From: a virus
Lineage: Duplodnaviria > Heunggongvirae > Uroviricota > Caudoviricetes
Length of the DNA: 8,419 nucleotides
Reading direction: 5' to 3' (one strand)
Virus record (IMG/VR): IMGVR_UViG_2671181188_000016
Shown here: positions 6,801-7,074 of the stretch, one piece after another
How the letters are laid out: each line of letters opens with the position of its first letter
Numbering within the stretch: position 1 is the stretch's first letter
The notes under the pieces: model-generated
Told to the model about the DNA's origin: nothing
The model's database searches: none
What the model saw: the letters and a program-made list of their open reading frames with translations, nothing else
Made by a program: the position numbers and the translations under genes

Positions 6801-7074
6801 AAAGTTACACGAAAAGTTACACCCCCTCAAAACGAGGTTTTTGCATGGCATTAACGACCAAAAAAAAGCGGTTTGCTGATGCGTTATCAAGGGGCGCAAA
6901 TCCCACGGAAGCCGCTATACATGCGGGATACAGCGAAAAGACCGCAAGGGTTAAAGGCTGGCAGCTATCCAACGATCCGGAGGTGAAAAAGTATCTTAAG
7001 GCTGTAACTCCTGATGTAACTTTTCAGGTTACAAAACCGAAAAAAGTTACAAAGAAAGTTACCGAAAAAGTTAC
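6801..7074. repeat. AAAGTTAC(AC) repeat array with 12-bp periodicity, spanning the 5' flank and interior of the TerS-like gene; candidate packaging-recognition (pac-like) or regulator-binding sites
   Basis: AAAGTTACAC at 6801-6810 and 6813-6822 upstream of the ATG. Inside the gene: GTAAC at 7004-7008 and 7016-7020, then GTTAC at 7028-7032 (the 7016-7032 pair forming GTAAC-N7-GTTAC), and AAAGTTAC at 7043-7050, 7055-7062 and 7067-7074. Confidence 0.45.

Follow-up and report, generated by a model that had tools for sequence, protein, structure and literature searches.

The 8,419-nt stretch of viral DNA analysed here (the window; IMG/VR record IMGVR_UViG_2671181188_000016, Caudoviricetes) carries, immediately upstream of and within its gene for a small terminase, terS, an array of about eight short sites with the consensus AAAGTTACAC. 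Judging from sequence comparison, this array is probably the cosB-equivalent of a cos-packaged phage-inducible chromosomal island (PICI), serving the island's own small terminase (TerS). By its gene content the window is a PICI-type satellite found in Escherichia coli that produces Shiga toxin (STEC), about 9 kb in size, with an integrase, alpA, a primase-helicase gene (pri-rep) with an origin, and a packaging module, and without lysis or tail genes. The sites of the array are the following.

6801..6810, + strand: site 1, AAAGTTACAC, non-coding, starting 30 nt past the predicted cos end
6813..6822, + strand: site 2, AAAGTTACAC, non-coding, 12 bp beyond site 1
7001..7010, - strand: site 3, inverted and degenerate, GAGTTACAGC on the - strand, codons A53-V-T-P56
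7014..7023, - strand: site 4, inverted, AAAGTTACAT on the - strand, codons D57-V-T-F60
7025..7034, + strand: site 5, CAGGTTACAA, forming with site 4 the palindrome TGTAAC-N7-GTTACA
7043..7052, + strand: site 6, AAAGTTACAA, codons K-V-T
7055..7064, + strand: site 7, AAAGTTACCG, codons K-V-T
7067..7076, + strand: site 8, AAAGTTACAC, codons K-V-T, starting 296 nt past the predicted cos end

Two sites are thus non-coding, and six sites with a GTWAC core fall within terS codons 53-77; scored as 10-mers against AAAGTTACAC, the eight match at 10, 10, 7 (inverted), 9 (inverted), 7, 9, 8 and 10 of 10 positions. A reading of the DNA made earlier from its letters alone (the sequence-only reading) had described two identical upstream copies 12 bp apart, three in-gene copies at 12-bp steps with a GTAAC ahead of them, and an inverted pair at 7016-7032. 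This geometry was recovered throughout, with AAAGTTACAC at 6801-6810 and 6813-6822, AAAGTTAC in exact phase at 7043, 7055 and 7067, GTAAC at 7004-7008, and GTAAC (7016-7020) facing GTTAC (7028-7032). By pattern search on both strands, the 8-mer AAAGTTAC occurs six times in the 8419 bp, always inside 6801-7074, five times on the + strand and once on the - strand at 7016-7023, while dinucleotide-preserving shuffles of the window (n=200) averaged 0.28 copies and never contained more than 2, with 0/200 reaching six. The same 274-bp stretch holds 8 of the 18 GTTAC cores in the window, and a repeat search returned the same family, with the upstream pair inverted relative to 7000-7024.

The gene that the array overlaps begins 23-44 nt after the upstream pair, and its features are as follows.

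6845..7333, + strand: terS, 162 aa, Pfam Terminase_2
TerS aa 5-54: helix-turn-helix (HTH) DNA-binding domain, predicted by AF2 (AlphaFold2) and Pfam
TerS aa 57-84: disordered linker, predicted likewise
TerS aa 96-146: helical core, predicted likewise

The ATG at 6845 is preceded, seven bases upstream, by GAGG at 6834-6837 and is backed by RefSeq annotation and by the alignment of homologues; if terS starts there, the upstream copies are non-coding. An alternative open reading frame (ORF) in the terS frame, 6728-7333 with a GTG start and 201 aa, would span both the cos block described below and the upstream repeats; the same alignment and annotation favour the ATG over it, and the N-terminus of cluster P0002 differs (MHGINDQ…).

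A conserved cos block, which the sequence-only reading had not noticed, ends about 30 bp before the first repeat.

6716..6790, + strand: cos block, G-run ... CTGGACACCGCCCCCCGTCTCA ... AGAAAATTTT, aligning column for column with relatives
6762..6771, + strand: predicted cosN cohesive end, CGCCCCCCGT, 10 nt, a 3' overhang by homology

The block aligns in Hafnia, Salmonella, Stx2a-phage, Citrobacter and Entomohabitans loci, in each case just upstream of terS, and in the Hafnia and Stx2a phages it lies in the intergenic region between an HNH gene and terS. In the loci of TerS homologues the shared block reads G-run ... CTGGACACCGCCCCCC.TCTCACGC.AGAAAAAA, and its core 20-mer (GGACACCGCNCCCCNTCTCA) is present in at least 120 IMG/VR contigs. 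The predicted position of the cohesive end derives from the Stx1 phage Lys8385Vzw, which PhageTerm, applied to virion reads, identified as a cos phage with 3' cohesive ends, its cos being CGCCCCCCCT at the genome end (PMC7946995); the GenBank record of this phage opens with CTCACGCAGAG, directly after CGCCCCCCCT. Past the predicted cos end of the window, two sites lie at 30-52 nt and six at 232-305 nt, and the segment that encodes the TerS DNA-binding domain separates the two clusters. Because the homologous cos decamer precedes them, the repeats appear to occupy the position of a cosB rather than that of a headful pac site; it is by homology that they stand beside cosN on its terS side, the first repeat following 30 nt on. 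A G8...C6 hairpin at 6712-6780, considered as a terminator or other structure, was rejected, being no more stable than shuffled sequence (z = -0.17). No Rfam family matched in the window, and inspection of the A/T-rich spacer by eye gave no convincing match to an IHF site.

The sequence-only reading had further proposed that the repeats act at the level of DNA, and had pointed to synonymous sites as a place to check this. In a codon alignment of nine terS genes, with statistics on seven divergent lineages whose proteins are 51-66% identical to the window TerS, the motif codons are indeed frozen: among degenerate columns with an invariant amino acid, a single codon is used in 6/7 motif columns vs 8/46 elsewhere (Fisher p = 0.0008). 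Pairs of sequences that share a Val use the same codon at a frequency of 0.93 in motif columns vs 0.34 in others, and for a shared Thr the corresponding values are 0.79 and 0.36. Site by site, the codons GTA ACT are kept at site 3 in 7/9 homologues and at site 4 in 8/9 sequences (L082 has GCA ACT), where the ACT (Thr) codon is invariant (9/9). Site 7 keeps AAA GTT ACN in 8/9 sequences, and at site 8 AAA GTT ACA is identical in 8/9, though synonymous sites elsewhere are saturated. Site 5 is found only in the E. coli sequences of this alignment (window, L095, L096, L082). The 12-bp unit of site 6 is missing from the alleles L095, L096 and L082, so that the number of units is polymorphic. Near-identical E. 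coli terS alleles carry three (window), two (P0004) or one (P0003) of the 12-bp AAAGTTAC units, and this variation (window 7043-7066; L095 3001-3465; L096 66-542) shifts the linker by 4 or 8 residues. The frozen codons, together with the fact that coding and non-coding copies change together between clades, support a DNA-level function of the repeats as seen in sequence comparison.

This concerted change emerged from a comparison of 112 non-redundant cos-terS regions, drawn from the matches listed in IMG/VR together with the loci already mentioned; the counts given below hold among these listed matches. Every relative with the cos block has a site at the offset of site 1, and the sequence of that site depends on the clade. 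The cos core stays constant, and four types of site, each tied to a TerS clade, occupy the same offset, with GTTACAC, GTTAAC or GTTAAAG as the core of the motif.

Type A: AAAGTTACAC twice at the conserved offset; this satellite and its relatives
Type B: CAGTTAACATGTTAACTGG (CAGTTAACATGTTAAC) and a further three GTTAAC copies, none of them coding, within a leader of 245 nt; Stx phages
Type C: GTGT[T/A]AAC[A/G]TGTTAACAG, overlapping the terS start codon; Citrobacter-like loci
Type D: AAAGTTAAAG two to three times, stepped by 12-13 bp; IMG/VR contigs, L112 and L146 among them

Type A loci contain AGTTACA 16 times upstream and 24 times in the gene, and AGTTAAA 0 times; in type D loci AGTTAAA occurs 30 times upstream and 26 times in the gene, and AGTTACA 0 times. 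Type B loci have GTTAAC 270 times upstream and 0 times in the gene, and type C loci have GTTAAC in the linker region in 10/28 cases, encoding Val-Asn in the examples read. In-gene copies, where present, therefore match the type of the upstream motif. The in-gene motif of type D (L112, L150, L171; about 230-290 nt past the cos core) occurs in two frames as well as inverted, and is accordingly translated as EKLK (gAA AAG TTA AAG), as KVK (AAA GTT AAA) or, inverted, as TLT (ACT TTA ACT); that one motif gives different peptides speaks for selection on the DNA and not on the peptide. The repeats are thus specific to the TerS lineage and the cosN is shared, as would be expected of a cosB. In the Citrobacter-like clade (L002, L004, L006 and about 27 IMG/VR loci), paired GTTAAC motifs overlap the terS start, …GTGTTAAC GTG TTA ACA…, and by this overlap the first TerS codons (M/V-L-T) form part of the predicted binding site.

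The recognition helix of TerS, following an invariant AGYS, also differs modestly between clades, reading EKTARVKG[W/C/Y]QL in A, AKTARVKGSQL in B, EK[T/S]ARS[Q/K]GS[R/Q]L in C and EKTAS[Q/A][Q/A]G[S/A][K/R]L in D. These differences would fit a common GTTA core with a 3' part that varies, as a correlation over about four clades only. The placement of the sites varies as well: type B has all five upstream, and the leader of L082 holds additional copies, which suggests that the number of sites downstream of cosN matters more than whether they are coding or non-coding. L082 is a 62%-identical E. coli variant (3760-4001) with its own HNH gene and cos block and no TerL nearby; its 223-nt leader contains five AGTTACA and one GTTAAC, its gene has fewer copies, a 281-aa capsid homologue follows terS, and it may represent a second satellite lineage.

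The Pfam Terminase_2 match of TerS (1.9e-10) covers residues 3-53, that is, the N-terminal 51 residues only, and the AF2 model shows a four-helix N-domain with a predicted local distance difference test score (pLDDT) of 79-88, a segment at residues 57-84 with pLDDT <50 and without secondary structure, and helices at 96-146 of only moderate confidence. Superposition of the modelled N-domain on 4ZC3, the DNA-binding domain of SF6 TerS, gave a target-normalised TM-score (TMt) of 0.85 and a root-mean-square deviation of 1.7 A; this N-domain is, in the model, an SF6-like HTH, for which DNA binding is predicted, and the order of an N-terminal HTH followed by a helical core is that of SF6/SPP1-like small terminases. 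The in-gene sites correspond to residues 53-77, largely within the segment predicted to be disordered, and the earlier statement that they encode a KVT linker agrees with the copies as read, AVTPDVTFQVTKPKKVTKKVTEKVT. Between the island TerS and that of the Stx phages the N-domain is 59% and the C-terminal core 69% identical, and the linker of the Stx-phage protein is longer and unrelated in sequence. The protein therefore seems to tolerate almost any sequence in this segment, and the conservation within the AAAGTTAC clade is for that reason best explained by the DNA.

The relatives of this TerS point to the packaging machinery with which it may work. In all retrieved loci of homologues with 51-66% protein identity to the window TerS, AAAAGTTACAC lies about 35 nt ahead of the start codon and copies of AAAGTTACA occupy the same codons. 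One of these loci comes from a true phage of Hafnia alvei, in which HNH endonuclease, cos block, terS, large terminase (TerL) and protease-capsid fusion follow one another; the motif is conserved there without satellite genes, so that terS alone accompanies it. A tblastn search against phage genomes found a 47%-identical TerS, in the same gene order, in many Stx1- and Stx2-converting STEC siphophages, and the only PDB sequence match of the Stx-phage TerL is HK97 TerL 6Z6D. A profile search with the TerS alignment, one genome per species, returned almost only distant N-terminal HTH matches and was useful for just three enterobacterial loci, L002, L004 and L006. In all true-phage relatives found, an HK97-type TerL accompanies this TerS, and the upstream gene, where visible, is an HNH nuclease; an upstream HNH gene with an HK97-type TerL after terS is the hallmark of HK97-like cos packaging. 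HK97 itself has 10-nt 3' overhangs, and its HNH protein stimulates cos cleavage (PMC9410871). The Pfam scan found neither TerL nor HNH in the island, which would need to borrow both.

In the mechanism that we propose, the island would after induction replicate from its own origin, and its TerS, which we infer to bind the AAAGTTAC sites, would do so through its SF6-like N-domain. The C-terminal core would then recruit the HK97-type TerL and the HNH nuclease of a helper, which would cut at cosN; this C-terminal core is 69% identical to that of co-resident Stx-converting phages. In the alignment cosN is nearly identical between the satellite and these phages. Packaging would proceed rightwards, into terS, and the distinct cosB would make it satellite-specific: as phages of the helper type carry GTTAAC repeats at the same place, the satellite would own a private TerS and cosB beside a shared cosN. 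The KVT linker would largely be a by-product of DNA sites placed in a sequence-tolerant segment of the protein. One could also speculate that, with the DNA passing around a 9-10-mer TerS ring, neighbouring DNA-binding domains would require a spacing close to the 12-bp step; simultaneous binding by multiple HTH domains of TerS is regarded as unproven in a recent review (PMC9611059). The fuller scenario, in which a widespread STEC satellite parasitises Stx-converting, HK97-like HNH cos phages by means of the helper cosN and a private TerS/cosB, and in which sites lying in the disordered linker of their own reader turn signal and reader into one inseparable cassette, is put forward tentatively, as a possibility to which we give somewhat less than even weight.

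Several observations weigh against this interpretation or narrow it. The decamer of the window, CGCCCCCCGT, differs by one base from the mapped CGCCCCCCCT, and the cos position predicted here goes back to one PhageTerm result, in a 47%-identical relative. The four motif types amount to about four clades, so that the covariation reflects few independent events. Between types A and B the recognition helices closely resemble each other (EKTARVKGWQL vs AKTARVKGSQL), and a single base separates the motifs (GTTAC vs GTTAAC); cross-recognition may occur, so that the specificity may not be private. An operator role of the upstream pair, finally, could coexist with packaging.

Of the other ways in which the array might be understood, the sequence-only reading had chosen a pac-like site, and from that proposal the role in packaging recognition and the location in and at terS still stand; the headful type is not supported, since a cos block lies upstream. 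In a headful scheme TerS would act on the repeats, TerL would make its first cut in or near them, and the packaged DNA would be terminally redundant. In P22, SPP1 and P1 the pac site is found within terS or at its beginning, and six of the eight sites here are within the gene; the fold of the N-domain and its Pfam family are those of SF6 and SPP1, both of them pac phages, and the island encodes no TerL or HNH of its own. We nevertheless consider headful packaging very unlikely: the cos block, non-coding yet conserved in the satellite, stands 30 nt upstream, the predicted cutting site (6762-6771) falls outside the repeats, a relative has a mapped 10-nt 3' cohesive end, and the partners of this TerS in true phages are the HK97-type TerL and, upstream where visible, HNH. 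A transcriptional role, in which the repeats would bind a regulator of the packaging module (TerS itself, by autoregulation, or another factor) and packaging specificity would reside elsewhere, for example in the cos block, is unlikely. The upstream pair sits at a distance from the ATG that is plausible for a promoter or operator, and HTH proteins frequently autoregulate, but a consensus scan found no sigma-70-like promoter at the repeats. The block of lysis genes in lambdoid phages is read through from the late promoter, and in Stx phages terS comes straight after the lysis genes, which should make a local promoter needless there; the Stx phages still retain five repeats in this position. The constant distance from cos in every clade and the presence of another cluster within the gene, 230-300 nt downstream, also suit a packaging nucleoprotein better than an operator.

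That selection acts at the protein level only, on 12-bp units generated by slippage and kept for the (K)VT linker, with the upstream copies being due to chance or remnants of a duplication, would account for the finding of three, two or one units among close alleles, as slippage predicts, and for the xVT periodicity that is kept in the protein alignment of TerS homologues. It leaves unexplained why codon choice is frozen across lineages that are saturated at other synonymous sites, why identical non-coding 10-mers stand at a conserved distance from cos, why the type D motif occurs in two frames and inverted with differing peptides, and why type B TerS has an unrelated sequence in place of the linker, which is predicted to be disordered; we judge this account highly improbable. 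To the notion that the repeats are replication iterons for the primase-helicase of the island we assign almost no likelihood. Iterons are typically short direct repeats spaced by roughly a helical turn, and they lie beside the initiator gene and flank an AT-rich region, but the array is 1.1 kb from pri-rep, and the AAAGTTAC motif is kept in a phage with unrelated upstream genes. A separate and much denser field (5693-5925) directly follows pri-rep, the usual place of a PICI origin (PMC6092414), and since the island has this iteron field of its own after the primase gene, the AAAGTTAC repeats do not appear to be iterons.

If the array is a cosB-equivalent, the functionally closest known element is lambda cosB (R3-I1-R2-R1, bound by gpNu1), which likewise places repeated elements right after cosN, at the first-packaged end and beside terS, with one element inverted; in lambda-type systems specificity lies in cosB, and cosN is interchangeable among relatives (PMC6092414; PMC6739421). 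The two differ in that lambda TerS is a winged-helix (MerR-like) protein and the island TerS has an SF6-like HTH, that lambda cosB consists of 16-bp R sites together with a site for IHF, none of it coding, whereas six of the eight island sites lie in terS at 12-bp steps, and that gpA gives a 5' overhang, whereas an HK97-type TerL with HNH is predicted to give a 3' overhang here. With the pac site of SPP1/SF6 (pacL/pacR, G1P) the array shares the TerS family and fold and, as regards SPP1, a bipartite arrangement, its short phased repeats forming two clusters some 200 bp from each other around the 5' end of terS, a pacL/pacR layout reportedly described by Chai, Lurz and Alonso in 1995. In SPP1, however, the pacC cut falls between the clusters and packaging is headful, whereas in the island the two clusters stand to the same side of a predicted cos-type site. 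The HK97 cos (Chechik 2024, PMC11331095) resembles the present one in its 10-nt 3' overhang, its HNH and the distance of the TerS site from the cut (15-29 bp past it, vs 30 nt here); it differs in that HK97 TerS belongs to an unrelated family, with the DNA threaded through the ring and a single 15-bp site, in place of an HTH TerS and a multi-site array.

Among satellites, the Rpp system of EcCICFT073 comes closest. This PICI keeps the helper cosN and carries a different cosB, read by a satellite protein that redirects the helper terminase (Fillol-Salom 2019, PMC6739421). Rpp, however, is an adaptor of the lambda-Nu1 kind and forms heterodimers with the TerS of the phage, and its helpers are lambda and phi80 and not HK97-like HNH phages, whereas the island encodes a complete TerS homologue of another family. 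An Rpp-type redirecting system was considered for the window and rejected, the protein being Terminase_2/SF6-like and not a lambda-Nu1-like winged helix; RppC was not retrieved by the TerS profile in a PDB search at E <= 1. Like the pac-type Staphylococcus aureus pathogenicity islands (SaPIs), the island has its own terS for self-preferential packaging (PMC6092414), and like SaPIbov5 it combines a helper-type cos and a capsid homologue with a predicted dependence on HNH-type cos phages (PMC5052747, PMC8569155). It differs from these in that SaPIbov5 has no terS and the TerS of SaPIs serves headful packaging. In the literature searched, no satellite is described whose own TerS acts at a cos site, and that on E. 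coli PICIs covers Rpp/lambda-type and capsid-forming islands, with nothing on this terS-cos arrangement. On these comparisons the array may be seen as a variant on the lambda-cosB theme, with a complete SF6-like TerS, HK97/HNH cutting, and most sites in the terS frame.

The other genes of the island assigned by Pfam are listed here.

1-1224: tyrosine integrase
2086-2310: AlpA
3930-5684: D5/DUF5906 primase-helicase (pri-rep)
7487..8419, + strand, running off the window: HK97-fold major-capsid homologue, Pfam Phage_capsid

The capsid homologue shares 24% identity (E = 1e-20) with the capsid portion of the protease-capsid fusion of the Stx2a phage and is, by analogy with Ccm in SaPIbov5, a candidate Ccm-like remodeller of capsid size. 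It is preceded by a conserved ORF of about 50 aa (7345-7506), and the trio of terS, 50-aa ORF and capsid-like gene recurs in Salmonella and metagenome relatives (L087, L088, L094). The iteron field at 5693-5925, in a 290-nt gap after the primase-helicase gene, is dense in GGTAGAGG/CCTCTACC, direct and inverted and up to 29 nt long, and is likely the replication origin of the island.

In E. coli O157:H7 this element is flanked by cspD/yljB and clpS, and 220 of 5426 complete E. coli genomes carry the island at 95-99% identity, always on the chromosome, with O157:H7, O103 and O121 among the carriers. Type B (GTTAAC) cos-terS units occur in 1253 of the 5426 genomes, up to seven per genome, and at least five genomes that carry the island also hold GTTAAC-type cos prophages; both are present, for instance, in the O103:H2 strain FWSEC0007 (NZ_CP031908). 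The packaging module (6051-8419: small ORFs, cos, terS and capsid homologue) is 95-98% identical in the IMG/VR islands L125, L175 and L144, whose integrase or replication modules are only 79-91% identical or unrelated, and islands of this kind are for that reason modular mosaics; over its whole length the window aligns colinearly, at 96.7%, with the IMG/VR contig L107 (8420 nt). The Sakai prophage Sp7 may be a related satellite, having been described as a packaged P4-like/lambdoid chimera (P4-like int/vis/alpha) without head genes (PMC2669165).

If the proposed reading is correct, the combination of a helper cosN with a private TerS and cosB, so far known only from headful SaPIs or from Rpp with lambda-type helpers, would extend to an apparently undescribed satellite strategy in which the satellite's own TerS acts at a cos site. 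The 12-bp-phased array would then offer a natural substrate on which adjacent HTH domains of a TerS ring might engage DNA simultaneously. The sequence specificity of HTH-type small terminases has been called unresolved in a recent review (PMC9611059), and the four clades, with the same cos core, different short repeats and one or two changed residues in the recognition helix, provide a comparative handle on it. The array would also be an example of dual coding, in which a set of DNA-binding sites dictates the sequence of a protein linker. The Stx-converting phages, finally, are candidate helpers of this island, which could therefore interfere with their spread.

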